This document shows positions 39 through 26,650 of a stretch of 64,000 nucleotides of DNA, one piece after another. Source of the DNA: an uncultured Gammaproteobacteria bacterium (lineage in GTDB: Bacteria; Patescibacteriota; Patescibacteriia; Magasanikbacterales; UBA10003). The stretch's first letter is position 1. Each line of letters begins with the position of its first letter. The position numbers and the translations under genes were made by a program. The stretch spans positions 42,475 through 106,474 of the forward strand of contig CAYIOJ010000001.1 in NCBI GenBank assembly GCA_964365025.1, given 5' to 3'. Below the pieces are notes generated by a model. That model was not told the origin of the DNA and did no database searches. It saw nothing but the letters and a program-made list of their open reading frames with translations.

Positions 39-677
39 GTGCCGGTTGGCTGGATGTGCCAATTCCGGTATTTCCTCAAACTCTACAACATGATCAAGGG
101 TGTCCGGGGAGATTTCGTAGAGTGCGGACTCGGTGAGGGCAACACCTTCGCCATGCTCGCCTACTTCATCGGCAGCGAAGATAACCAGCTGTCGCGGACA
201 CTCTGGGGCTTCGATTCATTCGAGGGTTGGCCAGAGCCCGCCGCTTCGGACGCTTCGCCCCGCAACCCCCAAAAAGGTGAGTGGAAGGTTAATGAAGGAA
301 TGATCAGACAAAGGTTCGAGGAATCAGGGATATACAAAGGATTCCCCGACCTTGACGTCAGGATCACCAAGGGATTTTTCAACGTAACCCTGCCCTACTT
401 CCCGGCGCGCCAAATCGCGTTCCTTCACATCGACGCCGACCTCTATCCAGGATATCACGACGCTCTGATCAACCTGTTCCCAAACGTATCGGTTGGTGGA
501 ATCGTCGCTTTCGACGAATACAAGGAGTTTCCCAACAAACCCGAATACGGGAACGGCCAAATCGAAAAATGGCCCGGCTGCACCAAGGCCGTGGACGAGT
601 ACTTCGAGGGTCGTCCGGAGAAGATCCAATACGACCCCGAGACAAAGAAGTATTTTGTCATGAAGGTTGCTCCGTAA
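39..677 (+). CDS. Class I SAM-dependent O-methyltransferase, TylF/MycF (macrocin O-methyltransferase) family. GTG start at 39, but the frame is open to the window edge, so it may be 5'-truncated.
   Basis: Motifs VECGLGEGNTFAML (SAM-binding GxGxG-like) and LHIDADLYPGYHDAL...GGIVAFDEY are typical of the TylF family. The region is GC-rich, unlike its neighbours. Confidence 0.6.
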   Translation: MPVGWMCQFRYFLKLYNMIKGVRGDFVECGLGEGNTFAMLAYFIGSEDNQLSRTLWGFDSFEGWPEPAASDASPRNPQKGEWKVNEGMIRQRFEESGIYKGFPDLDVRITKGFFNVTLPYFPARQIAFLHIDADLYPGYHDALINLFPNVSVGGIVAFDEYKEFPNKPEYGNGQIEKWPGCTKAVDEYFEGRPEKIQYDPETKKYFVMKVAP

Positions 678-716: not shown

Positions 717-747
717 GAGGACGTTCTAACAAAACGTCCTCTTTTTT
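717..747 (+). terminator. Rho-independent terminator: 9-bp perfect stem gaggacgtt/aacgtcctc, 7-nt loop, then a T6 run.
   Basis: Inverted repeat 717-725 / 733-741 followed by tttttt 742-747, directly after the stop of the 39..677 CDS. Confidence 0.6.
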
Positions 748-2416
748 ATTCCTTATACATTCCGGCCGACCATTTTTCAAGCAAAGGTTGGTTGGGGTCA
801 AGCATTAATTCACAGACAATCGGCCCTTGATGTTTCATTACTTTTTCTAACTTATCCAATTCGCTGTCATTGTTTATCCGTTCATAAGCCAATCCCCAGG
901 CCGGAATGAGTTTGCTATAATCCGGCAAGGTTACGCCTGACGACGGATCGGCGGCGGAAACTTTCTGGAAGAATGTTTGATGAGTATTTCTGATTGAGAA
1001 ATATCCGTTGTTGTTAAAAATAAAAATTTTTAGCGGCAACTGATGATGCGCAACTGTTTGCAATTCTTGAATGTTCATCATCAGCGAGCCGTCCCCTTCC
1101 ATACATACTACCGGCGTTTTACCTCCGGCGATGCTGGCGCCAATGGCCATCGGCAAGCCAGAACCCATATGCCCAAGTCCGGCGTTGGTAAGAAATCTCT
1201 TTCCGCGCGCGATTTTTAACACTTGATGAGAAGACAAACTGGCCATACCATTGGCAGTAGCTACATCCATTTTTATCGGCCATTTATTTAATTCATCGAA
1301 AAAATTGAAAACATTAAGATATTTTTTGTCGCAAGGATATTTTTCCGCGTTAATCGGCTCGGTTTTTACTTCCCAACGGTTTAATTTAATGTCTTGTGTA
1401 TAAAGTTCTTCTAAAAATTCTTTCGCGTCGCAATGAATCGGAACATCTATTTTAAGAGTCTCTTTTCTCATTTCATTCTCATCAATATCCACCATTATTT
1501 TCACCGCCTGCGTCGCGAACTTCGCGTAATCCCAAGAAACCTGCGTCAACTGCATGCGCTCTCCCACAATTAACAACACATCACAATTATCAATAACGAT
1601 GTTTGCTGACTTGTTCCCCCACATCCCCTGTCGACCTAAATAATACGGATAATCATAGGTGATAAGATCGTCAGCGGTAAAAATTGGAGTAATTGCGTTA
1701 ATTTGCAATTTCTCCAAAACTTTCCATAAAATTTCCTCGCCTCCGGCCAAACGGATGCCATTACCGGCCATAAGCAAAGGCCTTTTGGCATTTGTGAGAA
1801 ACTGGACCACTTTTTTAATTGTCGCCAAATCTAAATTGGTTGTCTCTCCAATCTCTGACGGGTCAAACGATTTTAAACCATCTGGTTCTATCTCTGTTGC
1901 TTGGACATCCAAAGGGATTTCCACAAAAACCGGACCAGGACGACCGTGTTTAGATAAATAGACTGCTTTTTCCAAATGATAACGAATTTCTTTCTCATTT
2001 TCCACGCTGACCGTGTATTTAGTGATTGGCTTGACAATATCAATAACATTAAGTTCTTGAAAACCGATTGCTCTGACAACCGGAACGTTGTTTTGGCGCG
2101 GCGTGATACTTGCTCGTTTGACTTGCCCGGCAATAACTAACATCGGGATACTATCCAACCACGCGCCGGCAATGCCGGTTACCGCGTTTGTCCCGCCAGG
2201 GCCGGTCGTAATCAAAGCAACCCCTGGTGAATTTTTAATGCGCCCATAACCTTCTGCCGCGATGGCAACCGCCTGTTCGTGATGACAACAATAAGCTTTC
2301 AAGTCTGATTTGCCGAGCGAATCCACCAAATGCATAATGCCGCCGCCGGAAACCAAAAAAACCGAATCCGCTACGTTATTTTTTATGAATTGAAAAACGT
2401 AATCACTTAACTTCAT
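746..2416 (-). CDS. Thiamine-pyrophosphate-dependent enzyme, acetolactate-synthase large-subunit-like (ALS / YerE-like).
   Basis: 556 aa with three-domain ALS-like architecture. It has the N-terminal TPP-Pyr motif GGGIMHLVD and the C-terminal TPP-binding GDGS motif (MEGDGSLMMNIQEL). Confidence 0.6.
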   Translation of the reverse strand: MKLSDYVFQFIKNNVADSVFLVSGGGIMHLVDSLGKSDLKAYCCHHEQAVAIAAEGYGRIKNSPGVALITTGPGGTNAVTGIAGAWLDSIPMLVIAGQVKRASITPRQNNVPVVRAIGFQELNVIDIVKPITKYTVSVENEKEIRYHLEKAVYLSKHGRPGPVFVEIPLDVQATEIEPDGLKSFDPSEIGETTNLDLATIKKVVQFLTNAKRPLLMAGNGIRLAGGEEILWKVLEKLQINAITPIFTADDLITYDYPYYLGRQGMWGNKSANIVIDNCDVLLIVGERMQLTQVSWDYAKFATQAVKIMVDIDENEMRKETLKIDVPIHCDAKEFLEELYTQDIKLNRWEVKTEPINAEKYPCDKKYLNVFNFFDELNKWPIKMDVATANGMASLSSHQVLKIARGKRFLTNAGLGHMGSGLPMAIGASIAGGKTPVVCMEGDGSLMMNIQELQTVAHHQLPLKIFIFNNNGYFSIRNTHQTFFQKVSAADPSSGVTLPDYSKLIPAWGLAYERINNDSELDKLEKVMKHQGPIVCELMLDPNQPLLEKWSAGMYKE

Positions 2417-2426
2417 ATATTTTTAT

Positions 2427-3383
2427 TTAATTATCTTTATACAAGTTTGAGATCCCCATAATTACAATCCCAATAAAGATTATTATTGCCCCGCTGATTC
2501 TAAATGGACGGGTATTTTGTTTAAAGACAATTAACACAAAAAAAATGGACCACAAGGCATCAATTCTTTTTAAAGTTCCTACCACGACAGCTGTTGGTAT
2601 TAAAGTATAAGCCACGCCCTGAAACCCATTGGCTATACCAAAACACAACCCCGCAATAGCCAACAACCAAATCGTTTCTTGTTTCCAGACCAAACTTTTC
2701 TTTTCTGTTAAAACGACTTCCGGTCTAGTCGGTCTTAGCCAGCCGTAAACAGTATAAAATAATCCCCACCCCACTAAAAGGGTAATGCCCGGGGCCAACA
2801 TGCTGTTGGTGTGAAGTATATTTAATTTATCAAAAGGAACTGATATTCCCGCGCTAACACCGGCAATGATCGCGAACACCAACCAATCTTTCCACTCGCG
2901 AATTATACGCTTAATCGGGCCTGTAACGCTGGAATTATTACTTTCTTTATAAAATGCATAAACACCAAATAAAGTGACAAAAATTCCAATAACGCCCGAT
3001 ATGTTTGGCATCTCATTCAACAACAATTTTCCAACAAACAAAGTAATAATTGGACCAAAAACTTGCACTTGCGGACCTACCGCCGGATCTGTTTTTTCCA
3101 GCGCCCCGAACCAACAATAAGCAATAATTATGTTTAAGACTACGGCAATGAAGAAACTGCCAAGAATCTTAATTGAAAAAAATCCCGTCGGAATTCCATA
3201 AAAGACAAAAGACAAAGAAATTAACATTATCCCCGCCACTAAACCAGATACTGCGCGAATAACCGAAGAATTTACTCCTTTATTTAAAATAATTTTTTGA
3301 ATATTCCACCACAACCCCATTAATGCCCCGTAACCGAAAATAACGAAAACAAATCCGAGTAATATTTTGAAAGAAATTGCCAT
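2427..3383 (-). CDS. Polytopic membrane protein, DMT/EamA-like permease (about 10 TM).
   Basis: 318 aa, hydrophobic helices throughout, two-halves organisation typical of EamA transporters. Confidence 0.4.
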   Translation of the reverse strand: MAISFKILLGFVFVIFGYGALMGLWWNIQKIILNKGVNSSVIRAVSGLVAGIMLISLSFVFYGIPTGFFSIKILGSFFIAVVLNIIIAYCWFGALEKTDPAVGPQVQVFGPIITLFVGKLLLNEMPNISGVIGIFVTLFGVYAFYKESNNSSVTGPIKRIIREWKDWLVFAIIAGVSAGISVPFDKLNILHTNSMLAPGITLLVGWGLFYTVYGWLRPTRPEVVLTEKKSLVWKQETIWLLAIAGLCFGIANGFQGVAYTLIPTAVVVGTLKRIDALWSIFFVLIVFKQNTRPFRISGAIIIFIGIVIMGISNLYKDN

Positions 3384-3385
3384 TA

Positions 3386-4309
3386 CTATGAGATTAAAAA
3401 TTCAATGGCTTTATAAACTCGGTCAACGGGCGACGCCTCATTGTCCAACAAAACATACGGTGGTTTTTCCATCTCTGGTTTAATGTCGGCGAACTCGTCT
3501 GAATTGGTAAAACTGTACGGAAAGCTCAAAAGCCCGGCGTCGTTGCCAACCGGCATATCGCCAAAAGTCGCCACCTGATTTGATTCCAATCCTAAAAGTT
3601 TCAAAACAGACTTAATCGCTACCGTTTTACTGTCTTCTTCCAATTTTCTGGTGATATGAACATAAGTATCATCACCGGCGACCGCGCGATAGACCTCGCC
3701 AAGAGCTTGGTTAAGCTTGGCCACGACTGGCGCGTGTAAAGATTTATCTTTGGGTAAAACAAATGTGACTTTGGCCTGCTCGGTAAAAAATTCGCCATCA
3801 TATGGTCGGCAGACATCAATCATTTCCGCTGGAACATAACCATCCCAAGAATCTTGTAGAAATTTTTTAAAGGTCTCCAATCCTTTTTCCGCCAAGTCGG
3901 CCCGGCTGATGCTCAATTTTTTATAAACATCCTGGCCGACTTCGGCCGCTTGCTTAACTTGCGACAATTCAAAACCGTGATTGTAAATCTCCACCAGTTC
4001 ATTCTTTTTTACTTCATAAAGAGTGGTGCCGTTGCCCCCGGCGACAAAGCTGGGCACGGACACATTTTCCCGATTTAACAACTCTTGCAATGGCGGTACA
4101 AGAACTTTAACGGCCGTGGCGGCGCGGGCGGTAATAAAAGCCACGGATTTATCTTTGGCCAAAATCTTTTCCACCAAACCAAACACTTGCGGCTGTTTAT
4201 GCGTGGTGTCGCTTACTGTCCCATCATAATCCAAACCAAACAATTTAATCAACGGCTTGGCCTCTTCCAATTTGACCCGGGCCAATTCCTTGTGTGCTGT
4301 AATATCCAT
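3386..4309 (-). CDS. HAD-superfamily (subfamily IIB-like) hydrolase / sugar-phosphate phosphatase.
   Basis: N-terminal DxDGT motif (GLDYDGTVSD) and C-terminal FGDMPVGNDAGLL (motif IV GDxxND). Confidence 0.55.
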   Translation of the reverse strand: MDITAHKELARVKLEEAKPLIKLFGLDYDGTVSDTTHKQPQVFGLVEKILAKDKSVAFITARAATAVKVLVPPLQELLNRENVSVPSFVAGGNGTTLYEVKKNELVEIYNHGFELSQVKQAAEVGQDVYKKLSISRADLAEKGLETFKKFLQDSWDGYVPAEMIDVCRPYDGEFFTEQAKVTFVLPKDKSLHAPVVAKLNQALGEVYRAVAGDDTYVHITRKLEEDSKTVAIKSVLKLLGLESNQVATFGDMPVGNDAGLLSFPYSFTNSDEFADIKPEMEKPPYVLLDNEASPVDRVYKAIEFLIS

Positions 4310-4318
4310 ATATAAAAA

Positions 4319-5860
4319 TTAAACAATCCAATAAGTTAACACGGTTTTACGATTTTGATTTTTCATTATTTCCGGGTCTTCATAATAAGAGTCGCCCGGA
4401 ATGTGGGTAGTGGAAACTTCTTCAAAAATACATCCGTTTTTGGTGGTAAATGAATGATTAACACCGCGCTCCACCACTACGATATCGCCCGCTTTGCTTT
4501 CCAATAGTTTGCCATCCAAATTAAATGTGACGTCGCCGTACAAAACATTAAACGTCTCTTCTTTCACTTTGTGAAAATGCGCAGGATGTCGCTGGCCAGA
4601 TAAAACTATGATCAACTTTTTACAATATTCCCGATTGATACAGCTGGCGATGCTGGCTCCGATTTCATAAAATCTGTCCAAACCATAATGGTGCGAAAGC
4701 TCAAAATTCCATTTATTGGAAAAAGGGATATTGGCCTGGCGCAGGAGCTTATTGACTTTTTCAACCGCTTCGTAAACTTTTTCCCGAGCGTCCAGTTGGC
4801 TCACATCGGCCGCCAAAATCGGCTCGTTCTTTTTAAAATCCTTCAAGGCGTTCAAAATCATATACTTTGACATTCCATTGGCCAAAACTTGTCCTGCCTG
4901 ATTAGGAAACGCGAAAAAAGTATTTTTTACCTCCACCCGTTCCCCCGCTTTAATATCGCTGACGGCAAAAACCCCCCGTTGGAACTGACGGATATCAGCC
5001 AGCTCTTGCTGGGCAAATTCATGCCGTTGGCCAGCCACCCCGCAATAAATATAAGCCTCCCGCGCCGCTTCCAGCCACTTTCTAATTTGTTCGGGAGTGG
5101 CTGAATAAGCGTTGATTGGATACTTCTCACTTTTTATCGCCACATGCTTTTCAAAAAACCCCGCCCTCTTGGCCACAGCCAATTTAACGGCTTCAAAATT
5201 ATCCGGCGACTCGTGTGTGGAAAATCCAATCACCACCTCAGGGTATCGTTTTTTTAATAAACTTATCTGATTAAGTTGTAGCTGATCTGCCGGCGTGGGA
5301 TATTGCCCCACGCAATGCATGATGGCAAATTTTTTATTCCGGTGCTGAAAAAAACTAACCACCTTGTCAATGTCTTCAATCTTTGCGCCGCCGATAGAAG
5401 CTACAATGGGCTTATCGGTTTGAATAATTTGTTCCAGGAGCGGCCAATCAGTAAATGAACAACTGGCCACTTTAATGATGTCGTAACCGTGCTTGACAAT
5501 ATTTTCCACCGATTTCTCGTCAAACGGAGTACAAATGGTAATAAAACCGAGTTTCTGCGCTTCGTTTTTCAATTTCAACACATCTTCTTCGCTTAATTTT
5601 GTTTCAGAAAAACGTTTAACATATTTTAAATCCATTCGATTTTTGTAATCTGGGTGAATAAAGGTGTCCAAATCTCGATATTGGAATTTAAAAGCAAAAT
5701 TCCAGCCCAAAACGAAAAAATCTTTAACCACTTCGTGAATGTCTCTGATAATTTTTAGCCCGTGCTCCACATCGCCCATGTGATTATTGGCCATTTCAAA
5801 AATAAAAAGCGGGCTGGCGAATTTTTCTTGACATTGATTAAAAATTTGGTCGATTTTCAT
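4319..5860 (-). CDS. NeuB/PseI-family ulosonic (sialic-like) acid synthase fused to a C-terminal cupin domain.
   Basis: N-terminus IFEMANNHMGDVEHGLKII...FKFQ matches the NeuB TIM-barrel signature (AEIGxNHxG...KFQ). A SAF-like segment (VSDIKAGERVE) follows. The C-terminal 120 aa carry a two-His cupin motif (GQRHPAHFHKVKEETFNVLYGD). Confidence 0.6.
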   Translation of the reverse strand: MKIDQIFNQCQEKFASPLFIFEMANNHMGDVEHGLKIIRDIHEVVKDFFVLGWNFAFKFQYRDLDTFIHPDYKNRMDLKYVKRFSETKLSEEDVLKLKNEAQKLGFITICTPFDEKSVENIVKHGYDIIKVASCSFTDWPLLEQIIQTDKPIVASIGGAKIEDIDKVVSFFQHRNKKFAIMHCVGQYPTPADQLQLNQISLLKKRYPEVVIGFSTHESPDNFEAVKLAVAKRAGFFEKHVAIKSEKYPINAYSATPEQIRKWLEAAREAYIYCGVAGQRHEFAQQELADIRQFQRGVFAVSDIKAGERVEVKNTFFAFPNQAGQVLANGMSKYMILNALKDFKKNEPILAADVSQLDAREKVYEAVEKVNKLLRQANIPFSNKWNFELSHHYGLDRFYEIGASIASCINREYCKKLIIVLSGQRHPAHFHKVKEETFNVLYGDVTFNLDGKLLESKAGDIVVVERGVNHSFTTKNGCIFEEVSTTHIPGDSYYEDPEIMKNQNRKTVLTYWIV

Positions 5861-5870
5861 ATTATTGATT

Positions 5871-6812
5871 CTATTGGCTTAAAATGTATTTTGATTCCAT
5901 TTTAATTGTTTCAAAAGAACCAAATTTAGGATGATAACCCAAATTGTTAATTTTACCATACTTTGAATAATAAATGCTTTTTGCTCCTGTTGCGCTCTCA
6001 CTACTCACGGATGTGTCCATTTGAAACATTAAACCGTATTTTCGAACAAAATAATCAACCACTTCTCTTTTCTCCACTGGCCTGGCACTCATAACATCAA
6101 AAGCTCCATTAATATGGCTCGCGGCTAAACACTTCATAACCACAACAAAAAGATCGTCTGGATGAACATAATCACGAATAATATTTTGATTATCAGTGAC
6201 AAAAACTTTCTTTTTCAAGATGCAGGATAATAGTTCGGTAATAAAATACCCATCCGTCAAGTCAATAAACCGACTAAAATAAGAAAAGAGCCTAAGATCC
6301 ACAATGTTCAAATCAGCGAATGCTCTGTGTTTGGCCTCGGCATTGAGCCTGGCAATCGCATAATAGTCTTCTTTATTTATGTGATTAACACTTATACAAT
6401 TTGTCGTATTTTCTCTTGCTGGCGCCGAAAAAACTTTACCATAGACCGCTCCGCTGCTGAAACTTATATAAAGCGTCTTGGGATGGTTGCGACGCAAATA
6501 CGCTATAACCAGATTATCGTATTCTTCGGTTATTGTAAAATATGCCGCATAATCGCCTTTATGTTTGTTAATGGTGCCAATACCAACGCAGTTAATCACC
6601 ACATCGTAATCGCGGTTAGGAAAATCCGCAAATCCATTATAAATAAAACGGTCTTTTCCTTCACACTTGCCAATGGCAACTAAAAAATCGTTTACCTTAT
6701 CGGCCGAGCGCGCATACAAATGCAAACAAAATTCCTCGCTTTGTAAAAAGTTATAAATTAACCCTTTGGCGATATGAGATGTAGCGCCCAAAATGGCGAT
6801 ATTTTTTTTCAT
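5871..6812 (-). CDS. NAD(P)-dependent epimerase/dehydratase/reductase (extended SDR) family protein.
   Basis: N-terminal Rossmann motif IAILGATSHIAKGL; 313 aa. Confidence 0.45.
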   Translation of the reverse strand: MKKNIAILGATSHIAKGLIYNFLQSEEFCLHLYARSADKVNDFLVAIGKCEGKDRFIYNGFADFPNRDYDVVINCVGIGTINKHKGDYAAYFTITEEYDNLVIAYLRRNHPKTLYISFSSGAVYGKVFSAPARENTTNCISVNHINKEDYYAIARLNAEAKHRAFADLNIVDLRLFSYFSRFIDLTDGYFITELLSCILKKKVFVTDNQNIIRDYVHPDDLFVVVMKCLAASHINGAFDVMSARPVEKREVVDYFVRKYGLMFQMDTSVSSESATGAKSIYYSKYGKINNLGYHPKFGSFETIKMESKYILSQ

Positions 6813-8008
6813 CAGTAAAGCGTTATTATCTCGTTATTTAATTTTAAAACCTCTCTGATTTGATGAATAATTTCTTCTTGATAAGAATGCGAAGAAATAA
6901 AAACCGGAACGCCTTCTTTAATCGCTTCTGGCGGTTTCACTTCTAGCCCTTTTATTTTTTTGCCGGCGTATCTTTTATTTGAATCGACAAAAAATAGTAT
7001 CTTGGACAAATCCAAACCGCTGCCTATAAGTCTCTGGGTGTGGGTACCCACGCCCCAAATAATTATTTTATCTTTACCTGACAACTTCTCCTGAATAATT
7101 TGATTAAGAGTTAAATCCATTGCTAAGCATTTTGTGATGTACTCTCTTACACGCGGCTCGCTGATGTCGTCCCGAACTATTTTTAACGTCTCTTCCGCTG
7201 TCTTTTTTGACAAACTGAGAATTTCCGTATCAACAGCGTTATTCAACTTGTGCTCATCCTGTCGAACCGCAATCTCTTCAAATGAAAATCGCGACAATAA
7301 ATTTTTTATGGAATATCGTGAAAAATAATTGATATGCTCCGTGCTGAATTGTTGAAATGGCGCTGAAACGAATAAAGAAAACTTTTCCGCGTTTGGAACG
7401 GCTATAAACAACAAACCATTTTCGTTTAACAATGATCTAATTTTTTGCATTGAATAATCAAAATCAACCAAATGCTCTAAAACCGCGGATAAAATAATCA
7501 AATCAAATTTTTCTATAGAATTAAAATTATAAACTGTATCGGTCGTCACTGTAATATCATATAATTCTTTAGCTGTTTTAGAACACTCCGATGATGGGTC
7601 AATGCCAAAAATGTTTGAATACCCGTTTAATTTAAAAATTGACAGCAAGCTACCCGTTGAACAGCCTATATCTAAAATTTTGGCATTTTTATTTTGCACG
7701 CGTGGCGCTAAAAAATTAAATATTTTCGTAAAATAGTCAACATATTCCTTTGAAACCCGCCCGCCCTGATAACTAAACTCATACTTAGACATGGCGGCGT
7801 AATAACCGTCGAAGTCAGCTTGTAACGGAATCCCGTCCGCAAAAACGAACCCGCATTTATCGCATACGACCACATCGTAACCGTCCATCAAAAAAATAGT
7901 CTTGTCACTAAACTTTTGTCTAAAAAGTAGCACTTTTTCTAAACAAGAACAGATGGGGCAAGCCCGACTCTTATTGCTGAGCATAAAATTTTTTGAGTCT
8001 CTCGACAT
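6812..8008 (-). CDS. NDP-hexose C-methyltransferase-like (TylCIII architecture: Zn-ribbon + class I MTase + C-terminal domain).
   Basis: N-terminal CPICSC...CDKCGF zinc ribbon, SAM motif ILDIGCSTGSLL and a ~120-aa C-terminal extension, 398 aa total. A likely alternative start (MLSNKS, about 7984) reduces the overlap with the upstream gene. Confidence 0.55.
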   Translation of the reverse strand: MSRDSKNFMLSNKSRACPICSCLEKVLLFRQKFSDKTIFLMDGYDVVVCDKCGFVFADGIPLQADFDGYYAAMSKYEFSYQGGRVSKEYVDYFTKIFNFLAPRVQNKNAKILDIGCSTGSLLSIFKLNGYSNIFGIDPSSECSKTAKELYDITVTTDTVYNFNSIEKFDLIILSAVLEHLVDFDYSMQKIRSLLNENGLLFIAVPNAEKFSLFVSAPFQQFSTEHINYFSRYSIKNLLSRFSFEEIAVRQDEHKLNNAVDTEILSLSKKTAEETLKIVRDDISEPRVREYITKCLAMDLTLNQIIQEKLSGKDKIIIWGVGTHTQRLIGSGLDLSKILFFVDSNKRYAGKKIKGLEVKPPEAIKEGVPVFISSHSYQEEIIHQIREVLKLNNEIITLY

Positions 8009-8993
8009 CGTTTTTCAAATCATCTTCCGGAAAAAACCTGTATTTAATGATATTGCATTCCGCGCAAGTCTGACAAACATTTTTAGCGCCATCAAGCATT
8101 TTTTTTCTAAATTCTTGGAATTTCTGTCCGTTCCAAATATCGCGCACCGACTGACTGTTGCAGTCTCCCATAGTTGCCGGATATTCAAAAGAATAGCAAG
8201 GCACGACTTTCCCGTCCGGATTTATCTGCATATGAAAAAATGGCTGGGGACAAACAGGCATGTCAAAAACCGGTAATCCAAATTGTGTCACTTGTGTTTC
8301 TTTATCTTTTAAAACATTTTTATAATCTATTCCCGCGTGAATCGGGACAGTATGCTCAATCGCCATAGTGTCACAAATATCTTCAAATAATTCGTAAAAT
8401 CTTTTTTCATCCTTTTTATCATCTACAGCCGTGTCTACAATTTTAATATAAACATGGGCTTTATTTTTGTTCTGATAAAAATATTTCAAATTGCCAATAA
8501 ATTTATCAAAATCAAGATTGACGCCACAAACTTTTTTATACTTTTCTCGAGTCGTTCCCTGAACGGAAACAACCAACCTAGTGAGTCCGGCCGCCAAAAG
8601 CGCGTCAGAAATTTGTGGAGTGAGAAGAAAAGCGTTTGTTAAAATTTCAATTGTATTGGCTATATTTTTTTTAGCTGTGCACCTAACCATTTCAACTATG
8701 TCTTTGTGTAAAAGAGGCTCGCCGATCCCAACGAAACGAATAACTTTAATTTTATTGGGGAAGGTGGTCATTTCATCCACGCATTTCTTATACAAATTTA
8801 AATCCATCATTACTTTATCTGAAATAAATCCCCGTTTTGCCGTGTCTATGGAAAAAATACAATAACAACACTTAAACACGCAGGCATATACTGGAAAGAT
8901 CTGCACAACAAATGGAGTATTCAATGGAAGAGCGTCTGCGAGCTTGGTCCTCTTCCCTCCCGGGGCTTGACCGCTGATATCTTTAGCCTTCAT
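7971..8993 (-). CDS. Radical SAM enzyme with C-terminal SPASM-like Cys-rich domain.
   Basis: CxxxCxxC motif in VYACVFKCCYCIF. C-terminal cysteines CPQPFF...VVPCYSF...CNSQSVRDIW...CQTCAEC resemble a SPASM domain. Confidence 0.65.
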   Translation of the reverse strand: MKAKDISGQAPGGKRTKLADALPLNTPFVVQIFPVYACVFKCCYCIFSIDTAKRGFISDKVMMDLNLYKKCVDEMTTFPNKIKVIRFVGIGEPLLHKDIVEMVRCTAKKNIANTIEILTNAFLLTPQISDALLAAGLTRLVVSVQGTTREKYKKVCGVNLDFDKFIGNLKYFYQNKNKAHVYIKIVDTAVDDKKDEKRFYELFEDICDTMAIEHTVPIHAGIDYKNVLKDKETQVTQFGLPVFDMPVCPQPFFHMQINPDGKVVPCYSFEYPATMGDCNSQSVRDIWNGQKFQEFRKKMLDGAKNVCQTCAECNIIKYRFFPEDDLKNDVERLKKFYAQQ

Positions 8994-9008
8994 AAAAAAA
9001 TTTTATAA

Positions 9009-10670
9009 TTATTTCAACGAAACCAAAACAAATTGATTAACTAAATTTCTCCAAAATACGGATTCTTTTAAAATTTTTTCGTATTTTATTTTGTATTCAC
9101 GATATTTCTCATCTAAATTCATTGTCAAGCAACATTTGGCTGCAAAATAATAAGCAAACGCGTGGTCATTCTTTACTCTTATTGTGTTTTCAAATCCTTT
9201 CAGCGCCACAGCATAATTTCCTAACTTAAAATCATTGTTCTCTACAAAATTGAGTTCAAGATTCAAAAAATAAGCTTTTTCTTGTATATATTCTGGTGTA
9301 AAATCTTCGGTTTCCACAATTGCCCTCTTAAAATCACAATTAATATAATCACCCTTAATATAATTATTTTTTAGGCAAACATCAAGCATTTCGCTACCAA
9401 CAAGAGGAGTGGCCATACTAATTCTAAACCATGATCCATTGAGAGTTTTTAAAAATGAACGCGCGTCTTCTATATCCTGTTTTGTTTCACCGGGCAATCC
9501 TATAAGTATCGACACATCAGAAACTATTCCCAATTGACGACAATCATCAACTACGCGTTTTACAATTGAAAGATTGAGCGGTTTATGCATAATTTCTTTT
9601 AAAACTCTATTACTGCCTGACTCTACTGACAAAACAAGATTATTTACCCCAATACTTTTAAGAGCCTCGAGCATTTTCCTATCTAAAGCATATAGAGCCA
9701 GCGAATTCGGAAAAAAGGCCGTCAAACGCAAATTTTTTATTATATCAAAAATTTCATAAACTCTTTTTTTGTCAGCCATTAAATGATCATCAAAAAAAAT
9801 CAATGTCTCTGCGCCATATTTATCTTTCAACCGCTTAAAATCCTCTTTGACGCGTTTCATACTATAATAACGCATTTTTCTTCCATGTACAGTGTATGAA
9901 GAACAGAAACTGCAACGATGAGGGCACCCTCTAGAGATCATAACCGACATCCCTTTTCTTTTTCTTTCTTCTTCAAGTGGAAAAAGTGAAAGTATGGGAT
10001 TTATACCGTAATCCTTTATGTTCAGAATATCGTAATCTAAAAACGGTATCTCATCTAGGTCTTGAACAAAATCATGTTCAAAAGATTGTTTATTTTTTAT
10101 TTTCTTATTTGTGATCCAAGATAAATTATTTTCTAAAAAATAAACTTTATCTTCTGCCATCATTAATCCTAAAAACGGTTTTTCTCCCTCACCATAACAA
10201 AGAGCGTCAAAGCAATAACTCTCTTTAAAAATCTGATTAAACATGTTGGTTGGAATTCCTCCTCCAGCTACTATCAAAGCGCTGGGAAATAAGTCACGCA
10301 CAGCCTGTCCTAAATCAATCATATTGTGATACGCCGGCGCAAATAATGTCGATATACCCACTACGGTTGGTTTAAAATCGATCCACTCTTTTTTAGAAAA
10401 AAAATCGTAAAACAATTCTATAAAAGAACCGAAACTAAAATCTACCATCTTATTTAAAACGACATTAAAATCAATAAATTTTATCTCTATTGAATTTATA
10501 TTTTTTTTTAAATAGGAGCTTATGGATAAAATACCTAAAGGCATTTCGGTCACCAAACTGCCGAAACTCCCATTTTTTTTAAACACCACACGCTCATTAA
10601 AATCTGGTTTTACAAAACTTGTATAAGTTATGTACGGTGGTACTATAAACAATAAACGGTCCGTTATCAT
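9009..10670 (-). CDS. Cobalamin (B12)-binding radical SAM enzyme (class B, putative C-methyltransferase).
   Basis: N-terminal B12-binding-like Rossmann region, then MISRGCPHRCSFCSS (Cx3Cx2C); 553 aa. Confidence 0.65.
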   Translation of the reverse strand: MITDRLLFIVPPYITYTSFVKPDFNERVVFKKNGSFGSLVTEMPLGILSISSYLKKNINSIEIKFIDFNVVLNKMVDFSFGSFIELFYDFFSKKEWIDFKPTVVGISTLFAPAYHNMIDLGQAVRDLFPSALIVAGGGIPTNMFNQIFKESYCFDALCYGEGEKPFLGLMMAEDKVYFLENNLSWITNKKIKNKQSFEHDFVQDLDEIPFLDYDILNIKDYGINPILSLFPLEEERKRKGMSVMISRGCPHRCSFCSSYTVHGRKMRYYSMKRVKEDFKRLKDKYGAETLIFFDDHLMADKKRVYEIFDIIKNLRLTAFFPNSLALYALDRKMLEALKSIGVNNLVLSVESGSNRVLKEIMHKPLNLSIVKRVVDDCRQLGIVSDVSILIGLPGETKQDIEDARSFLKTLNGSWFRISMATPLVGSEMLDVCLKNNYIKGDYINCDFKRAIVETEDFTPEYIQEKAYFLNLELNFVENNDFKLGNYAVALKGFENTIRVKNDHAFAYYFAAKCCLTMNLDEKYREYKIKYEKILKESVFWRNLVNQFVLVSLK

Positions 10671-11764
10671 AAAAATAATCTCTGGTCTTTATTAAACGGC
10701 TTTTGTGTTTTATCTTCATCGGTAAAGACTTCCGAGCATGGCACAGGCAATGATTTGCCATATATTCTTCCGGCGACATACTTTTTAATAAAATCCCGAT
10801 CTTCCGCTATCGTGCAGGTGTCAACATATTCGCCGAAATATTTAATACCAAACCCTCTTTTAATTATATCCTTCAATGGCTCCTTTAAAATATTACCAAC
10901 CGATGTATGAATATATGGACAAGGGAGTACATCTCCATATTGCGTTACGGAAAACATCCCTTTGAGCGCGATGCAACCTATATTAAGTCCGTAAGCGGGA
11001 GTCAAATGAGTAAAGACCTTGTACTTTTTTTCCAATTCCTCCATGTAGGTCATGTCTTTTTTATCAACCAGACCTTCATAATTACCTTCCCACGCGCCGA
11101 CTGGTTTGGCATAGCTTACAAACACACCAATTCCTTTATTAGTAAAATATTCTAAATATTTAATAAACTCTTCCGAATACAGTCGCTCTTTCCAAACAAC
11201 AGTCTGCATAAAAATATCCAACCCGACTTTTCCGACCGCGTCAACGGCTCTCATAACCCTTTCATGCGCACCTTTGGCATGTCTAAATTTATCGTGTTCC
11301 TCGGCGTCTAAACTATCTAAACTTACCTGCACACGGTCAATACCAATGCTTTTTAAATGTTTTGCCCGATTTTCATCCAATAACCACCCATTTGAATCGC
11401 AATTTATATAAAATTTTTGCGGATCAATCGCCGCGACCAATTCGTCAAAATCTTTAAAAACCAATGGTTCGCCTCCGGTTATCGTTACGCGCGCCAACCC
11501 CAATTCGTCTGCTTGTCTGAAAAGTTCTTTTACATCAGGAATGGTCATCTGTGGAGCGTCATTTCTACCTTGAAACTTCTTGATTGAGCAGTGTTCGCAG
11601 GCAAAATTGCAGGTATAATTATACTGAAATTGAATAATGGCAATGCTTTCTCCCCTTTTAATTTTCTCGTTAAATTTCATTATTTTCTTGTAAACAAGGG
11701 GTTTTTCTTCTTTGAGTTTGTTCCTATTTTTGATTTCAGCAAATTTCAACGATTCATTTATCAT
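10667..11764 (-). CDS. Radical SAM enzyme (sugar-modifying type; twitch/SPASM-like C-terminus).
   Basis: FQYNYTCNFACEHCS (Cx3Cx2C), GGEPL glycine-rich SAM motif, C-terminal cysteines LPCPYIH...YVDTC. Confidence 0.6.
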   Translation of the reverse strand: MINESLKFAEIKNRNKLKEEKPLVYKKIMKFNEKIKRGESIAIIQFQYNYTCNFACEHCSIKKFQGRNDAPQMTIPDVKELFRQADELGLARVTITGGEPLVFKDFDELVAAIDPQKFYINCDSNGWLLDENRAKHLKSIGIDRVQVSLDSLDAEEHDKFRHAKGAHERVMRAVDAVGKVGLDIFMQTVVWKERLYSEEFIKYLEYFTNKGIGVFVSYAKPVGAWEGNYEGLVDKKDMTYMEELEKKYKVFTHLTPAYGLNIGCIALKGMFSVTQYGDVLPCPYIHTSVGNILKEPLKDIIKRGFGIKYFGEYVDTCTIAEDRDFIKKYVAGRIYGKSLPVPCSEVFTDEDKTQKPFNKDQRLFL

Positions 11765-11792
11765 AACAAGAATCCTCTAAATAAAAATTGTT

Positions 11793-12749
11793 TTAATTTT
11801 TAAAATATTCTTTATACCAAAGATATGTTTCCGCAATTCCATCTTCAAAACTTATTATCGGCACCCAATTTAATTTTTCTTTCGCCTTGGACCAGTCAAG
11901 ATACTGTGCCGGTATTTCATTTTTAGCGATATTCAGGACATTATATTTGATTGTCTGTCCCAAAATTTTTTCTATTCTGTTTATAACATCTATAACGCTA
12001 TAGATGTTCGTACTACCGAAGTTAAAAGCTTCTCCAGCCGCTATTTCTATGTTTTGAGCCAATTTTATACAACCATCAATTATGTCTTTAACATAAACAT
12101 ATTCTCTGACCATTTTTCCATCGCTTCTTACCGCCAGTTCAGCGTCTTTTATTGCCGCTTCTAATGCTCCCGGAATAATTCTGGAAAAATTAAAATCCCT
12201 GGGACCATAAACATTGCTGAATCTCGTTATAACGACTGGCAGGCCATAAGTTGAAAAAAATGCTTGGGCTATCAAATCGGCGGCCGATTTTGATACATCA
12301 TAAGGATGACTGCCTTTCAACGGAAAAAATTCTTTATAAGGCAATTCCTTCGTTCTACCGTATGCCTTATCGGAAGAAATAACAACGACAAATTTTAAAT
12401 CTCCTTTTTGTCTACATGCTTCCAATACATTTACCGTGCCCATGATATTTGTTTCCAGAGTTTCAACGGGATTTTCATAGGCCTTTTCAACAATTGGCTG
12501 CGCGGCTAGATGGAACACGCCATCTATTTTTTCTCTCTCCAAAATTTGAAAAATATTTTTGTCTCTAACATCAGCTTTGTAAAACCTAGCTTTAAGGTTT
12601 ATATTTTCTCTTTTTCCGCTGGATAAATTGTCAATCACAACAACATTGTGGCCCCTTTCTATCAGTTCATCTACTAAATGGGAGCCGATGAAGCCGCCTC
12701 CCCCTGTCACTAAAATATTTTTCGCTTTTAGTCCGTCCATATTTTCCAA
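11793..12749 (-). CDS. NAD-dependent sugar-nucleotide epimerase/dehydratase, plausibly CDP-hexose 4,6-dehydratase or epimerase.
   Basis: VTGGGGFIGSHL Rossmann motif, ISSDKAYG (resembling the SDKxY of CDP-glucose 4,6-dehydratases) and a YDVSK catalytic YxxxK. It lies next to rfbF. Confidence 0.5.
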   Translation of the reverse strand: MENMDGLKAKNILVTGGGGFIGSHLVDELIERGHNVVVIDNLSSGKRENINLKARFYKADVRDKNIFQILEREKIDGVFHLAAQPIVEKAYENPVETLETNIMGTVNVLEACRQKGDLKFVVVISSDKAYGRTKELPYKEFFPLKGSHPYDVSKSAADLIAQAFFSTYGLPVVITRFSNVYGPRDFNFSRIIPGALEAAIKDAELAVRSDGKMVREYVYVKDIIDGCIKLAQNIEIAAGEAFNFGSTNIYSVIDVINRIEKILGQTIKYNVLNIAKNEIPAQYLDWSKAKEKLNWVPIISFEDGIAETYLWYKEYFKN

Positions 12750-13519
12750 AAAGGATCATTTGTCCAATGTTCGTTCATCTCTTCCGCTTCTTTATGAGTA
12801 TCCATGCACTTCCATTTTCCTGGATGGCAATAAACGGAAAGCTGTCCTTTTTCCGCTAAAAGAGGAAACACGGCTTCAATCATGCCGCCCGGCGGTATCA
12901 GATTCAACACATCGCGATTAAAAACCATAAATCCGCCATTGATAAAATCTCTAGATAAATCATCTTTCATGCCCTGAGTTACTTTGTGCTGAAAAAAATC
13001 TTTAACTTTCTTGGCATCATGGTCAATATTTAAAAAACCAAACCGCGAGGCCGGTCGAACTCCCGTGACTGTCGCCAAAGCGTTTTGCGCCCGATGAAAA
13101 TCAACCAACTCTTTTATGTTTATATTACCCACACCATCTCCATAAGTCACCATAAAATCGTCACCGTCAATATATTTTGCTAATCGCCTGACACGTTCTC
13201 CGGTTAAAGTATCCTGGCCGGTTTCGGCAAAAGTAATCTTAAAATTGTCACACTCATCATTATGAAAAAAAATCTCATTAGATTTAGTATGGAGGGTAAA
13301 ATCGTTAATCAAGCCGCGCCAATTTAAAAAGTATTCTTTAATCATGTGACCCTTATAGCCCAAAGCCAAAACGAACTCATTGTAACCATGATGAGCATAT
13401 AATTTCATGATATGCCACAAAATCGGCTTGCTACCGACCAAAACAAGTGGTTTTGGCTTAAACTCGGTTTCCTCTTTCATTCTAGTGCCCACACCGCCGC
13501 AGAGAATGACTACTTTCAT
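12728..13519 (-). CDS. rfbF: Glucose-1-phosphate cytidylyltransferase (CDP-glucose synthase).
   Basis: MKVVILCGGVGTRMKEETEFKPKPLV...GSKPILWHIMK is the characteristic RfbF/DdhA N-terminus. The six-frame ORF runs to 13585, but MKVVILCGG at 13519 is the probable true start. Confidence 0.7.
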   Translation of the reverse strand: MKVVILCGGVGTRMKEETEFKPKPLVLVGSKPILWHIMKLYAHHGYNEFVLALGYKGHMIKEYFLNWRGLINDFTLHTKSNEIFFHNDECDNFKITFAETGQDTLTGERVRRLAKYIDGDDFMVTYGDGVGNINIKELVDFHRAQNALATVTGVRPASRFGFLNIDHDAKKVKDFFQHKVTQGMKDDLSRDFINGGFMVFNRDVLNLIPPGGMIEAVFPLLAEKGQLSVYCHPGKWKCMDTHKEAEEMNEHWTNDPFWKIWTD

Positions 13520-16920: not shown

Positions 16921-18024
16921 TTAAATAAAATTTTTATGCATTGGTTCGTGTCCGGTGGCCGGCGCCAATTTCGCGTCATTATTCTTCAAATCCCAAAGAA
17001 ATTCGTTGACTTTATGCTGTAAGCACAACGTGCCACACATGGTGCGAGCGTCAAACTTTTCTGAAGCGATTAAATTCATCACCTCCCAATATCGTTCACC
17101 TTGCCAAAGTTCTTTAAATGATGTCTCCGCGATATTGCCAATATGATATTTTTTGTATCTTTCATTGAAAAGCATGCCGCAGGGCGCCACTAACCCCGAA
17201 CCAGACATCTGCAAAATAAAAGGCGGACCAAAACATTGCGAGTATTTTCTTTTCCCGCCGCTCATTATCTTTGACCACTTCGCTTTAACCAAATAATCTT
17301 TAGTGGAATAGCTTTCTGCTTTTTTCAGCAGTTCCGTCAATTCAAAATATTTTGAATAATCAACCCCTAAACTCCCCTCCTCATCATCGCTACAATGCTT
17401 AATAACTAAATAATCAACTCCTAATTCTTGGCCTAATTTAGCCAGCGGCATGATTTGATCCTGAAACTGCGGCATCAAAACCATTTGCAATCCAATGGTC
17501 ACTGTTAAATCCTGCTGTTTTTTAATACGCACGGCATTTTTGATATTATCGCAAACTTGATAAAACGCCTGTTCTGGACAACCGTGTATTTCCGCGTATC
17601 TCTTGGGTTTGGCGGCCGAGATATTGAATCGCAAATAAGTCAAAGCCGGCAATATTTTTGCCAAATGAATTTCATTTAATAAATAACCATTGGTACCTAA
17701 AGCCATATCCAAACCATTAGCGCGACCCTGAACGATCGCGTCATATAAATATGGCGAACAAGTGCTTTCTCCGTCACTCACAAAACTAACGGCTTTCACG
17801 CCGATATCGGCGGCATCGTCCAAAAATTTAAACACTACTTCTTTGGTCATTCTTTTTATGTCATTAGCTTGAAGTTGGCCATAACAATAAACACAATGAT
17901 AATTGCAGGCGCGAGTTAGAGCGCAGTCAATAGTAATCGGGGCAATTCGCTCGCCACGCAACCATGCCTCTACGCGATCCTTGTGCCAATTCAATTTGTG
18001 ACCATCAAGAATGATTTCACTCAT
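16921..18024 (-). CDS. Radical SAM enzyme (paralog of 20762..21856).
   Basis: ALTRACNYHCVYCYG (Cx3Cx2C). C-terminal cysteines CGMLF...CGTLCLQHK and the shared C-terminal tail ...NFI match the paralog. Confidence 0.6.
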   Translation of the reverse strand: MSEIILDGHKLNWHKDRVEAWLRGERIAPITIDCALTRACNYHCVYCYGQLQANDIKRMTKEVVFKFLDDAADIGVKAVSFVSDGESTCSPYLYDAIVQGRANGLDMALGTNGYLLNEIHLAKILPALTYLRFNISAAKPKRYAEIHGCPEQAFYQVCDNIKNAVRIKKQQDLTVTIGLQMVLMPQFQDQIMPLAKLGQELGVDYLVIKHCSDDEEGSLGVDYSKYFELTELLKKAESYSTKDYLVKAKWSKIMSGGKRKYSQCFGPPFILQMSGSGLVAPCGMLFNERYKKYHIGNIAETSFKELWQGERYWEVMNLIASEKFDARTMCGTLCLQHKVNEFLWDLKNNDAKLAPATGHEPMHKNFI

Positions 18025-18725
18025 AAAATTTTATGACGAAGATAAATATCCGTGAATAAATCCAAAATTGTCAGTAAAACATAATAAACATTTTTCAATT
18101 TTAAAGCCCGTGATTGGCGTTGGGGCGGCTTAATTATCATTTCAATTTCTTTATAATGATAACCGGCTTTAATCAAACGCACCAAAATCGCCGACATATA
18201 AGCAAAATTGCTGGCAATGGGCGCCTTTTTGAGTAAATCGGTTTTAATTAAAGAGGGGCCGTTAAAATATCTCAAATTTAAGCCGAATAAAAAATTCAAA
18301 AAGTTGGTATAAATCGCGGAAATAAAACGACGAGACCAACTTCTAATTTTTTTATTAACAGTATAAGTAGTGACAATTTCGGCTGAACCTAAGGCCTTAA
18401 AAAGATTTTTAATGGTGCGCGAATCGGTTTCGTCGTCTCCGGGTAACATAACTGCATATTCCCCCCGCGCCATAGCCACGCCTTCACGAAAACAGCCGCC
18501 CAAATTTTGCGGTAGAGCATGATGGATAACTCGAATACGCGAACTAGACGACGCCAAAGCATCGGCGATTTCTCCGGTTTGGTCGGTGCTGCCGTCGTTA
18601 AAAATCAAAATTTCATAATCATTTCTTCCTGATAAGGCAGTCGAGATATTTCTCACGGCGCTGGCAATATTTTTTTCCTCATTCAAGGCCGGAACAATGA
18701 TTGATATATTAATATTCTCTTCCAT
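18021..18725 (-). CDS. GT2 family glycosyltransferase.
   Basis: ISIIVPALNEEKNI...IFNDGSTDQT...GDDETD (DxD-like). Confidence 0.6.
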   Translation of the reverse strand: MEENINISIIVPALNEEKNIASAVRNISTALSGRNDYEILIFNDGSTDQTGEIADALASSSSRIRVIHHALPQNLGGCFREGVAMARGEYAVMLPGDDETDSRTIKNLFKALGSAEIVTTYTVNKKIRSWSRRFISAIYTNFLNFLFGLNLRYFNGPSLIKTDLLKKAPIASNFAYMSAILVRLIKAGYHYKEIEMIIKPPQRQSRALKLKNVYYVLLTILDLFTDIYLRHKIL

Positions 18726-18731
18726 AAAATG

Positions 18732-19775
18732 CTAAAAAGAACCGTCAAATTTCTTAACATATTCTTCCGTTGGTTGAATCTCCTTCATCTGCGTTTGATT
18801 TTTACCAAGCACTTCCCAAACGGCCGAAACAATCTGGCCAGCTTGCGGGTAGAAAAATTCTTCCAATTTGTAGCTGGTGGGAGACGGTGATTCTGCCAAA
18901 CTTATCCGTTTAATCGGCGCTCGTAAATAAGACATGGCCTCCTCGGCCACGGTAGCGGCAATTTCGCTGGCCAGGCCGCACATTAAATGACCAGTATCAG
19001 CCACTACCAAATGACCGGTTTTTGTGACTGATGTCAAAACAGTTTGCTTATCCCACGGCTTTAAAGATCGCAAATCAATAATTTCCGCCTTTATTCCTTT
19101 TTCCGCCAAAATGGCGGCGGCTTTCATTGCTTCCAAAACCATCTGAGATATAGCGACGATAGTAACATCATCGCCTGATCTCATTATTTTGGCCGATCCC
19201 AAAGGAATGGTGTAATACTCTGTCGGAACGTCGCCAATTTCTTTATGCAACCAACGATGTTCTATAAAAATCACCGGACATTTTTCTTTAAAACTAGACA
19301 ACAGTAAGCCTTTCGCGTCATAAGGAGTAACTGGCATGACTACTTTTAATCCGGGTATATGCACAAATAATGATTGCAAACTTTGTGAATGTTGCGGCCC
19401 CTGGCCCCAGCCGCGGCCGATGATCGCCCGTAAAATAATCGGCGCGGACATCCGACCGCCATAAGTATAGCTCCATTTAGCCGCGTGATTAACGATTTGA
19501 TCCATGGCCAAAAGCATAAAATCATCACGCGCATATACCAGCATAGGGTGCATCCCCATCACGGCCGCGCCCAGAACCACGCCAGTTAAAGCATTTTCAG
19601 ACAGCGGCGTATCTTCCACTCTTTTTGAACCAAACTTCAAAAAGGCCTCGCGAGTGGTATTAAAAATACCAGCGGCGTCATCGACTCCCTCGCCTAACAC
19701 AAAAATTTCCGGCTGTCTCTCCATGGCGAGAACAATTGCTTCGCTAACGGCTTGGGCATAGGTAATCTCACGCAT
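18732..19775 (-). CDS. Alpha-ketoacid dehydrogenase / transketolase-like E1 component, beta subunit.
   Basis: N-terminal REAIxxAM-like MREITYAQAVSEAIVLAMERQPEIFVLGEGV. 347 aa with a C-terminal transketolase-C-like region. Confidence 0.65.
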   Translation of the reverse strand: MREITYAQAVSEAIVLAMERQPEIFVLGEGVDDAAGIFNTTREAFLKFGSKRVEDTPLSENALTGVVLGAAVMGMHPMLVYARDDFMLLAMDQIVNHAAKWSYTYGGRMSAPIILRAIIGRGWGQGPQHSQSLQSLFVHIPGLKVVMPVTPYDAKGLLLSSFKEKCPVIFIEHRWLHKEIGDVPTEYYTIPLGSAKIMRSGDDVTIVAISQMVLEAMKAAAILAEKGIKAEIIDLRSLKPWDKQTVLTSVTKTGHLVVADTGHLMCGLASEIAATVAEEAMSYLRAPIKRISLAESPSPTSYKLEEFFYPQAGQIVSAVWEVLGKNQTQMKEIQPTEEYVKKFDGSF

Positions 19776-19777
19776 AT

Positions 19778-26648: not shown

Positions 26649-26650
26649 AT

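Follow-up and report, generated by a model that had tools for sequence, protein, structure and literature searches.

A conserved gene cassette in a Patescibacteria surface-glycan locus probably makes an acyl-branched CDP-deoxyhexose and pairs RfbH with radical SAM enzymes

The stretch examined here, 64,000 nucleotides of contig CAYIOJ010000001.1 (positions 42,475 to 106,474; hereafter the window), originates from a groundwater metagenome (Hainich H51), and NCBI labels the contig as a Patescibacteria metagenome-assembled genome (MAG). The window is a single surface-glycan locus of more than 48 kb, encoded nearly entirely on the minus strand, and includes no fewer than three starting modules for nucleotide sugars, eight radical S-adenosylmethionine (SAM) genes and many glycosyltransferases. 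Near its left end, a cassette of minus-strand genes combines a cytidine diphosphate (CDP)-hexose starting module with a thiamine diphosphate (ThDP)-dependent carboligase, a NeuB-like enzyme that condenses phosphoenolpyruvate (PEP), a C-methyltransferase and three radical SAM enzymes. Judging from enzyme families and gene order, this cassette probably, though far from certainly, makes a CDP-activated, C4-acyl-branched deoxyhexose of the yersiniose/erwiniose/caryophyllose class. An earlier note on this DNA had proposed that radical SAM enzymes may replace the E1/E3 deoxygenation system (DdhC/DdhD) of CDP-sugar pathways. The E1 gene, rfbH, is in fact encoded in the same locus just beyond the window, and rfbH and the radical SAM genes are partners, not alternatives. 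The functional unit is wider than the sub-cluster described in that note: it covers 746-13519 plus parts immediately left of the window, the noted genes forming its upstream two-thirds. The note omitted the conserved downstream partners that define the pathway, namely the NeuB-like enzyme, a phosphatase and the YerE-like ThDP enzyme (746-5860).

The absence of E1 and E3 asserted by the note holds within the 64-kb window, where tblastn finds no match to rfbH and Pfam no gene of the DegT family; for the genome as a whole it does not hold. The window shares 11,334 bp, with a single mismatch, with a sister contig (L086) that reaches 9.25 kb further left. There rfbH is directly observed at 17012-18317 of the contig (window-relative -6982 to -5677, or 5.7-7.0 kb left of position 1), on the same strand as the cassette and with a 10-N scaffold gap as the sole interruption. 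The gene product is 72% identical to a Patescibacteria RfbH, and the representative of this family (c4) scores 725 bits against NF011936, for which the cutoff is 423. A gene absent from a sequence window need not be absent from its locus. The same-strand segment of the sister contig from 12304 to 18317 (window-relative -6982 to -969) carries the cassette's NUDIX hydrolase, a GtrB-like GT2 glycosyltransferase, a fourth B12-domain radical SAM gene, a small methyltransferase and rfbH. This GtrB-like GT2 is 62% identical to a protein cluster (c12) found in related loci.

Related loci were collected around homologues of the B12-domain radical SAM enzyme, giving 77 genomic loci from more than 15 phyla, and were compared with the window by tblastn and de novo clustering of open reading frames (ORFs). 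A locus was considered complete (n=37) if it extended 8 kb or more to each side of the B12-domain radical SAM gene. Synteny of the cassette is directly observed in this set. The ThDP enzyme is present in 31 of the 37 complete loci, the radical SAM enzyme rSAM_A in 29, rfbH in 26, where it stands alongside the same radical SAM genes, and the NUDIX hydrolase in 25. The NeuB-like enzyme follows with 23, the dehydratase with 19, a bona fide TylCIII-type methyltransferase with 18 and rfbF with 16; 34 of the 37 carry at least one of the ThDP enzyme, rfbH and the NeuB-like enzyme. The typical order is rfbF, dehydratase, rfbH, NeuB-like enzyme, HAD phosphatase, ThDP enzyme, short-chain dehydrogenase/reductase (SDR), NUDIX, C-methyltransferase, B12-domain radical SAM, rSAM_A, GtrB-like GT2 and GtrA (e.g. 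L071, L047, L012), and many cassettes end in the last two genes (c12 and c20). The 597-aa membrane protein, the GT2s and the E1 alpha/beta pair that adjoin the noted genes are not conserved with the cassette across the 77 loci. One locus departs from the pattern: in Ca. Magnetomonas plexicatena (L085; CP049016.1), the B12-domain homologue (P0082) is 63% identical and has no rSAM_A, NeuB-like enzyme, ThDP enzyme or rfbH within 10 kb, while a methyltransferase resembling that at 6812-8008 and an SDR are retained. A cultivable carrier, Holophaga foetida DSM 6591 (L057), holds part of the cassette. Linkage within the cassette is therefore strong but not universal.

All ORFs named in the earlier note are present on the minus strand at the coordinates it gave, and its CDP-hexose starting module is borne out. 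The gene at 12728-13519 (ATG at 13519, 263 aa) is, by its profile and structure matches, a true glucose-1-phosphate cytidylyltransferase of the RfbF/DdhA type. It aligns with the full length of TIGR02623 (model positions 1-255) at 273.2 bits, against a cutoff of 300.25 and 75 bits for the next family. Its best match in the PDB is the Salmonella glucose-1-phosphate cytidylyltransferase 1tzf, again over the full length (E 1.9e-62; next match 1e-16). The adjoining extended SDR (11793-12749) carries the motifs SSDKAYG and PYDVSK, which hold an Asp-Lys dyad and YxxxK and are kept across the whole SDR subtype. An Asp-Lys dyad is typical of CDP-glucose 4,6-dehydratase. Classical dehydratases grouped in one cluster with this subtype show T(S/T)DKCYE and PYSxSK and fill the slot between rfbF and rfbH in other loci, an rfbF-SDR-rfbH adjacency that recurs among the relatives. 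The SSDKAYG subtype itself lies directly upstream of rfbH in five loci (L016, L019, L021, L024 and L074), in two of them (L016 and L019) directly between rfbF and rfbH. Because of the dyad and the position beside rfbF and rfbH in relatives, this SDR is taken to be a probable CDP-glucose 4,6-dehydratase of a variant subtype.

The ThDP enzyme (746-2416) has the three domains TPP_enzyme_N, M and C and a GDG motif, and it is the last gene of the operon. Its best PDB match is 8rph, JanthE, over the full length (368.6 bits, E 6e-109), compared with 247.9 bits for the best acetolactate synthase (ALS), and the ALS equivalog models score far below their cutoffs. JanthE, from Janthinobacterium sp. HH01, is a YerE-like carboligase that has been characterised (PMC12188165). 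Its ThDP motif is an unusual CDG, where the window enzyme has the canonical GDG. By these scores the ThDP enzyme is much closer to a YerE-like carboligase than to any ALS.

Upstream of it, at 4319-5860, lies a fusion of a NeuB-like PEP-condensing TIM barrel with a metal cupin resembling lyxose isomerase (NeuB-cupin), recognised by Pfam NeuB (147 bits), Cupin_2 and a weak Lyx_isomer match. The protein is not a standard sialic acid synthase by score: it reaches 131.8 bits against the NeuB model TIGR03569 (cutoff 399.65) and 130.8 against the PseI model TIGR03586 (cutoff 340.25), both far below cutoff. Its best PDB match is 3g8r, an uncharacterised "SpsE" structure, at 378 bits, while true sialic acid synthases reach about 83. 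In place of a SAF domain, the C-terminus is a cupin with the motif HFHxxKxEE, resembling D-lyxose/mannose isomerases, which hints that the cupin part may isomerise a ketose to the aldose acceptor. Homologues number at least 7,934, and a search for them in cultured Chromobacterium and Janthinobacterium returned only metagenomic relatives among its top 120 matches.

NeuB-type condensation of PEP with an aldehyde yields a 4-hydroxy-2-keto acid, the class of compound accepted by ErwE and MMAR_2332. The distribution of NeuB-cupin was compared with that of HpcH/HpaI aldolase in 54 sources carrying the ThDP enzyme (53 loci and the window): none has both, 36 have NeuB-cupin only, seven have the aldolase only and 11 have neither. 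Most loci encode, together with the enzyme that forms the keto acid, a HAD phosphatase (c8, c30 or c22); in the window it is a Cof-type HAD-IIB phosphatase at 3386-4309 (Pfam Hydrolase_3, NCBIfam HAD-IIB). NeuB-cupin and the phosphatase therefore appear to act in the aldolase's stead, making the 4-hydroxy-2-keto-acid donor. A Patescibacteria protein of 863 aa on a 963-kb contig (P0136) is a fusion of a c10-type SDR (65% identical to the c10 protein of L025) with NeuB-cupin (74% identical to the window protein). This fusion ties the c10-type SDR functionally to the NeuB-cupin step.

The earlier note counted three radical SAM enzymes; that number is right for its sub-cluster, and the window as a whole holds eight. 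The gene at 10667-11764 (rSAM_A) encodes a radical SAM protein with a SPASM/twitch-like C-terminus (Pfam Radical_SAM and SPASM), whose closest solved relatives are MoaA (E 1e-17) and BlsE (7e-11). It is 59-83% identical across phyla and, on the synteny counts given above, is the obligate partner of the B12-domain enzyme. The latter (9009-10670) has a B12-binding domain, the class B fold and a C-terminal helical, TPR-like tail, and is a candidate methylase or AprD4-type dehydratase. At least 1,792 homologues are 60-76% identical to it, from hosts labelled Patescibacteria, Nanoarchaeota, Omnitrophota, Nitrospirota, Kiritimatiellota, Desulfobacterota and others. Both this enzyme and NeuB-cupin retain about 60% identity across phyla. 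The third enzyme, rSAM_C (7971-8993; Pfam Radical_SAM and SPASM), best matches the auxiliary-cluster domain of BtrN in the PDB (E 2e-12). It occurs in 16 of the 37 complete loci, always with the divergent methyltransferase and/or the SDR (SDR2/c10) that follow it here, and the three genes form an accessory sub-module found in about 40% of loci. The tight linkage of radical SAM genes to the cassette is a new element.

None of these proteins is recognised as DesII or AprD4, the enzymes on which the earlier note had modelled its deoxygenation route. Against the DesII model (TIGR04426), rSAM_C scores 38.7 bits where the cutoff is 450, and rSAM_A has no match to it among its best 25 families. The B12-domain enzyme reaches 79.3 bits against the AprD4 model (NF033070; cutoff 500), and P-methyltransferase and HpnJ models score higher. 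In a fold comparison, three cobalamin-dependent methylases lie within 2 Z-units of AprD4. The fold of the enzyme does not tell the dehydratase and methylase functions apart. A cobalamin methylase is mildly favoured by the invariant SxL and GGG motifs, whose spacing is that of B12-binding domains. It is also possible that the enzyme dehydrates a diol in a polyhydroxylated side chain as AprD4 does, with an SDR then reducing the product, and this would rescue part of the earlier deoxygenation idea at a different site.

Two known groups offer a comparison for the B12-domain enzyme: AprD4/AprD3, the radical SAM 1,2-diol dehydratase and reductase of apramycin biosynthesis, and the class B cobalamin radical SAM methylases MgmA, CysS, TsrM and TokK. 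The likeness lies in a sugar-like substrate and a nearby SDR. Unlike both groups, to which it is 15-20% identical and whose family models it matches far below cutoff, the window enzyme has an extra C-terminal helical repeat domain. A separate family was observed in nine of the related loci (cluster c15: L033, L040, L052, L053, L058, L062, L074, L077 and L079), in which a radical SAM protein has an N-terminal domain matching PF08484 and is always paired with a GT2-like protein (c18). PF08484 is the nucleoside diphosphate (NDP)-sugar-binding C-terminal domain of C-methyltransferases, and c15 looks like a radical SAM enzyme built for nucleotide-sugar binding.

The methyltransferase of the accessory sub-module (6812-8008, 398 aa; MT398) was described in the earlier note as TylCIII-like, on the understanding that lack of a PF08484 domain would formally speak against the assignment. 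Pfam finds neither PF08421 nor PF08484 in it, even at E<=10. The Pfam negative is not read as a refutation, because profile-profile and PDB-profile comparisons point to the domains. In MT398, a CxxC...CxxC ribbon is combined with a class I methyltransferase domain and a C-terminal domain, apparently of the NDP-sugar-binding type, some 130 aa long. Its invariant cysteines C17, C20, C49 and C52 align with the ribbon of a family (c6) that carries both PF08421 and PF08484. The two families align in hhalign with 99.9% probability (E 9e-35) over 335 columns, covering residues 15-389. The MT398 profile also matches TylC3 (4rv9; E 1e-11), including EH...Y and the C-terminal WG.G...D...G...P, which covers TylC3 residues 311-393, and the homologue in Ca. 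Magnetomonas has a weak precomputed match to PF08484. By these comparisons MT398 is probably a divergent three-domain C-methyltransferase of the TylCIII/TcaB9 type. Its layout resembles that of the NDP-hexose 3-C-methyltransferases TylCIII, TcaB9 and KijD1, with a Cys4 ribbon, a conserved E-H pair in the class I SAM domain and a Rossmann-like domain at the C-terminus, but it is too divergent for the two Pfam models. Identity to c6, the bona fide TylCIII-type paralogue of the same cassettes, is only some 23-25%. SDR2 (5871-6812; Pfam Epimerase, 51 bits) is an atypical extended SDR and a candidate ketoreductase, with a YerF-like or AprD3-like role. It comes after rSAM_C/MT398 in 11 loci and is distantly related to the c13 SDR, which follows the ThDP enzyme in other loci.

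Acyl-branched sugar clusters, unified by Steitz et al. 2022 (PMC9306805), include those of yersiniose (DdhA-D with YerE/YerF), erwiniose (ErwE/F/I/J), caryophyllose (MMAR_2331-2333) and gastriose (MyGE). For the long-branched sugars erwiniose, caryophyllose and gastriose, the route begins with an aldolase that produces a gamma-hydroxy-alpha-keto acid. This acid is decarboxylated by a YerE-like enzyme, which joins it to CDP-4-keto-3,6-dideoxy-D-glucose, and a reductase, sometimes followed by a SAM methyltransferase, then acts on the branch (PMC9306805). The published gene set comprises the ddh genes, the aldolase, the YerE-like enzyme, the reductase and sometimes the SAM methyltransferase (PMC9306805; PMC12247030). 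The cassette has every part of this scheme except the aldolase: it shares with the known clusters the cytidylyltransferase, CDP-glucose 4,6-dehydratase, RfbH/E1, YerE-like ThDP enzyme, a source of 4-hydroxy-2-keto acid, SDRs and a SAM methyltransferase. It differs in its presumed source of the keto acid, PEP-dependent NeuB-cupin and a phosphatase rather than a class II pyruvate aldolase, in lacking E3/DdhD by motif search, in containing two to three tightly linked radical SAM enzymes, one with a B12-binding domain, and in its hosts, which are mostly uncultivated anaerobes, including Patescibacteria.

The family assignments of the enzymes are directly observed, and from these and the published scheme we infer the order in which they might act. 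RfbF would form CDP-glucose, which the Asp-Lys SDR would dehydrate to CDP-4-keto-6-deoxyglucose, and RfbH, encoded 5.7 kb beyond the window, would take off the 3-hydroxyl. We infer that NeuB-cupin and the HAD phosphatase could join PEP to an aldose, giving a 4-hydroxy-2-keto acid. The YerE-like enzyme would decarboxylate this acid and attach what remains at the C4 ketone of the CDP-sugar, so that C4 becomes a tertiary alcohol bearing a long side chain, whose ketone the SDRs would reduce. The TylCIII-like methyltransferase and the three radical SAM enzymes may then modify the ring or side chain by C-methylation and/or diol dehydration or epimerisation; each of these radical SAM reactions is a proposal. 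Finally, the sugar would be transferred to polyprenyl phosphate by the GtrB-like GT2 and used outside the cytoplasmic membrane in glycosylation by GT-C-type and Wzy_C-type proteins, both of which the locus encodes. The product would probably be an unusual branched deoxy CDP-sugar, as the earlier note had anticipated.

Several observations weigh against this assignment. The SDR at 11793-12749 falls below the cutoff of the CDP-glucose dehydratase model TIGR02622 (189 versus 278.45 bits) and scores marginally higher, also below cutoff, against the dTDP-glucose dehydratase model TIGR01181 (192.6 bits); its best PDB match, 4zrm, is annotated as a UDP-glucose 4-epimerase. An epimerase function, as that match would suggest, was set aside as the likeliest role on account of the Asp-Lys dyad and the rfbF-rfbH position. 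Two genes on the opposite strand, one for a TylF-like methyltransferase and one a 247-aa ORF, stand between the ThDP-enzyme gene and the group left of the window to which rfbH belongs. The conserved NUDIX hydrolase is related to GDP-mannose mannosyl hydrolase and could release the sugar from CDP, which is a better fit to chain extension. No DdhD/E3 candidate was found in the window, the sister contig or the 77 loci, a weak negative that comes from a regular expression for the plant-type Fe-S and FNR motif regions rather than a hidden Markov model. With RfbH so common, the absence of E3 suggests that these anaerobes supply E1 with electrons from a general carrier. Finally, the in-silico survey of YerE-like clusters by Krug et al. 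2024 may already list such clusters.

Three other readings of the locus were considered. The one proposed by the earlier note, in which DesII- or AprD4-like radical SAM chemistry deoxygenates the ring of a CDP-hexose instead of E1/E3 and C-methylation completes a branched deoxy sugar, could draw on the lack of E1/E3 genes in the window, the lack of an E3-like ORF in related loci by motif search and the presence of an SDR as a possible AprD3-like reductase. We consider it quite improbable: rfbH lies in the same locus and accompanies the radical SAM pair in most complete relatives, the DesII and AprD4 scores fall far short of their cutoffs, AprD4 is not distinguished in fold from cobalamin-dependent methylases, and the invariant SxL...GG motif suggests cobalamin binding. 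The claim that radical SAM enzymes replace E1/E3 is not supported, being contradicted by the rfbH gene of the locus and by its company in relatives. A very large glycan locus, with its several nucleotide-sugar modules, eight radical SAM genes and many glycosyltransferases, might also simply bring together unrelated sugar-modifying modules that share no pathway, and the EamA transporter, the 597-aa membrane protein and the adjoining GT2s are indeed not conserved with the cassette. This is highly improbable, since dozens of loci in unrelated phyla hold this core set, 50-83% identical and with its gene order kept or nearly so, and such cross-phylum synteny excludes chance co-location.

A chain-extension pathway is unlikely as well, if somewhat less so than either of these. 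The NUDIX would free the deoxyhexose from CDP, NeuB-cupin would condense it with PEP to a deoxy-nonulosonic acid, the ThDP enzyme would decarboxylate this to a higher 2-deoxy-aldose and the radical SAM enzymes would tailor it. The mannosyl-hydrolase-like NUDIX, present in most complete loci and just left of the window, fits such a scheme, as do the phosphatase within the cassette and the use of free or phosphorylated aldoses that is normal for NeuB-family enzymes. On the other hand, the cassette lacks a CMP-ulosonic-acid synthetase or kinase to reactivate the product, the GtrB-like GT2 requires a nucleotide-activated donor, and the ThDP enzyme is nearest to a YerE-class carboligase. Where a pyruvate aldolase stands in for NeuB-cupin, rfbH and the ThDP enzyme are retained, a substitution that fits the supply of a donor and that chain extension does not account for.

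Pathways of this class have been described before; the use of NeuB-cupin, the lack of E3 and the obligatory pair of radical SAM enzymes are new elements in the literature searched. No published account of these three elements was found in a search that excludes the survey by Krug et al., and nothing relevant was found on radical SAM enzymes in combination with CDP-glucose, branched-chain sugars, NeuB or nucleotide sugars. A bolder proposal, offered tentatively as one possibility, is that the cassette represents an undescribed family of long-branched CDP-deoxyhexoses spread horizontally among mostly uncultivated anaerobes of more than 15 phyla, with Patescibacteria and MAGs labelled Nanoarchaeota among them. 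In this family, PEP-dependent NeuB-cupin would feed a YerE-like carboligase, a radical SAM pair (one of cobalamin type) would rewrite the side chain, and E1 would work without a dedicated E3. [quoted passage not shown] Acyl-branched sugars are rare and immunologically important parts of bacterial surfaces, and to our knowledge only a handful of their pathways are understood, all from aerobes with pyruvate aldolases. The cassette suggests a common but undescribed surface sugar in groundwater and sediment anaerobes, including the tiny-celled Patescibacteria. It also offers candidate new enzymes: a PEP-driven supplier of chiral keto acids to ThDP carboligases, which themselves attract interest as biocatalysts for tertiary alcohols, and radical SAM enzymes acting on nucleotide sugars.

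The minus-strand genes of the cassette abut or overlap (6812/6812, 10667-10670 and 12728-12749), and hence form one operon. Between the HAD phosphatase and the ThDP enzyme, this operon includes an EamA-family membrane transporter (2427-3383; Pfam EamA), a candidate flippase or exporter with no homologue in the 77 loci and so not conserved with the cassette. A hairpin with a 10-bp stem and a T-run at 716-742, found by a terminator-like scan as a consensus match only, marks the probable operon end. It lies between the convergent ThDP-enzyme gene and TylF-like gene (39-677, plus strand) and probably terminates transcription in both directions. Scanning the window against Rfam and for tRNAs gives no rRNA, tRNA or other Rfam match.

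Further along the minus strand, a pyruvate-dehydrogenase-type E1 alpha/beta pair (18732-20758; 315 and 314 bits) lacks partner genes for E2 and E3 and lies between two paralogous radical SAM/SPASM genes (16921-18024 and 20762-21856) and GT2 genes. The pair resembles the "alphaKADH2" class, which adds C2 branches to deoxy-keto sugars (PMC12247030); if the resemblance extends to function, the locus would contain a second sugar-branching system. At 25215-29472 (minus strand), a GmhA-like SIS protein and an HldE-like kinase/nucleotidyltransferase of the ADP-heptose type stand beside another B12-domain radical SAM gene. Patescibacteria are expected to lack lipopolysaccharide, which makes ADP-heptose-type genes unexpected. 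Two minus-strand Wzy_C (O-antigen-ligase-like) proteins with TPR tails (49912-52128 and 56279-58591) flank a GC-rich island (51-54% GC versus about 38%), which holds a 1,084-aa ORF (52281-55535, plus strand) with Dictyostelium-type Cys-rich repeats.

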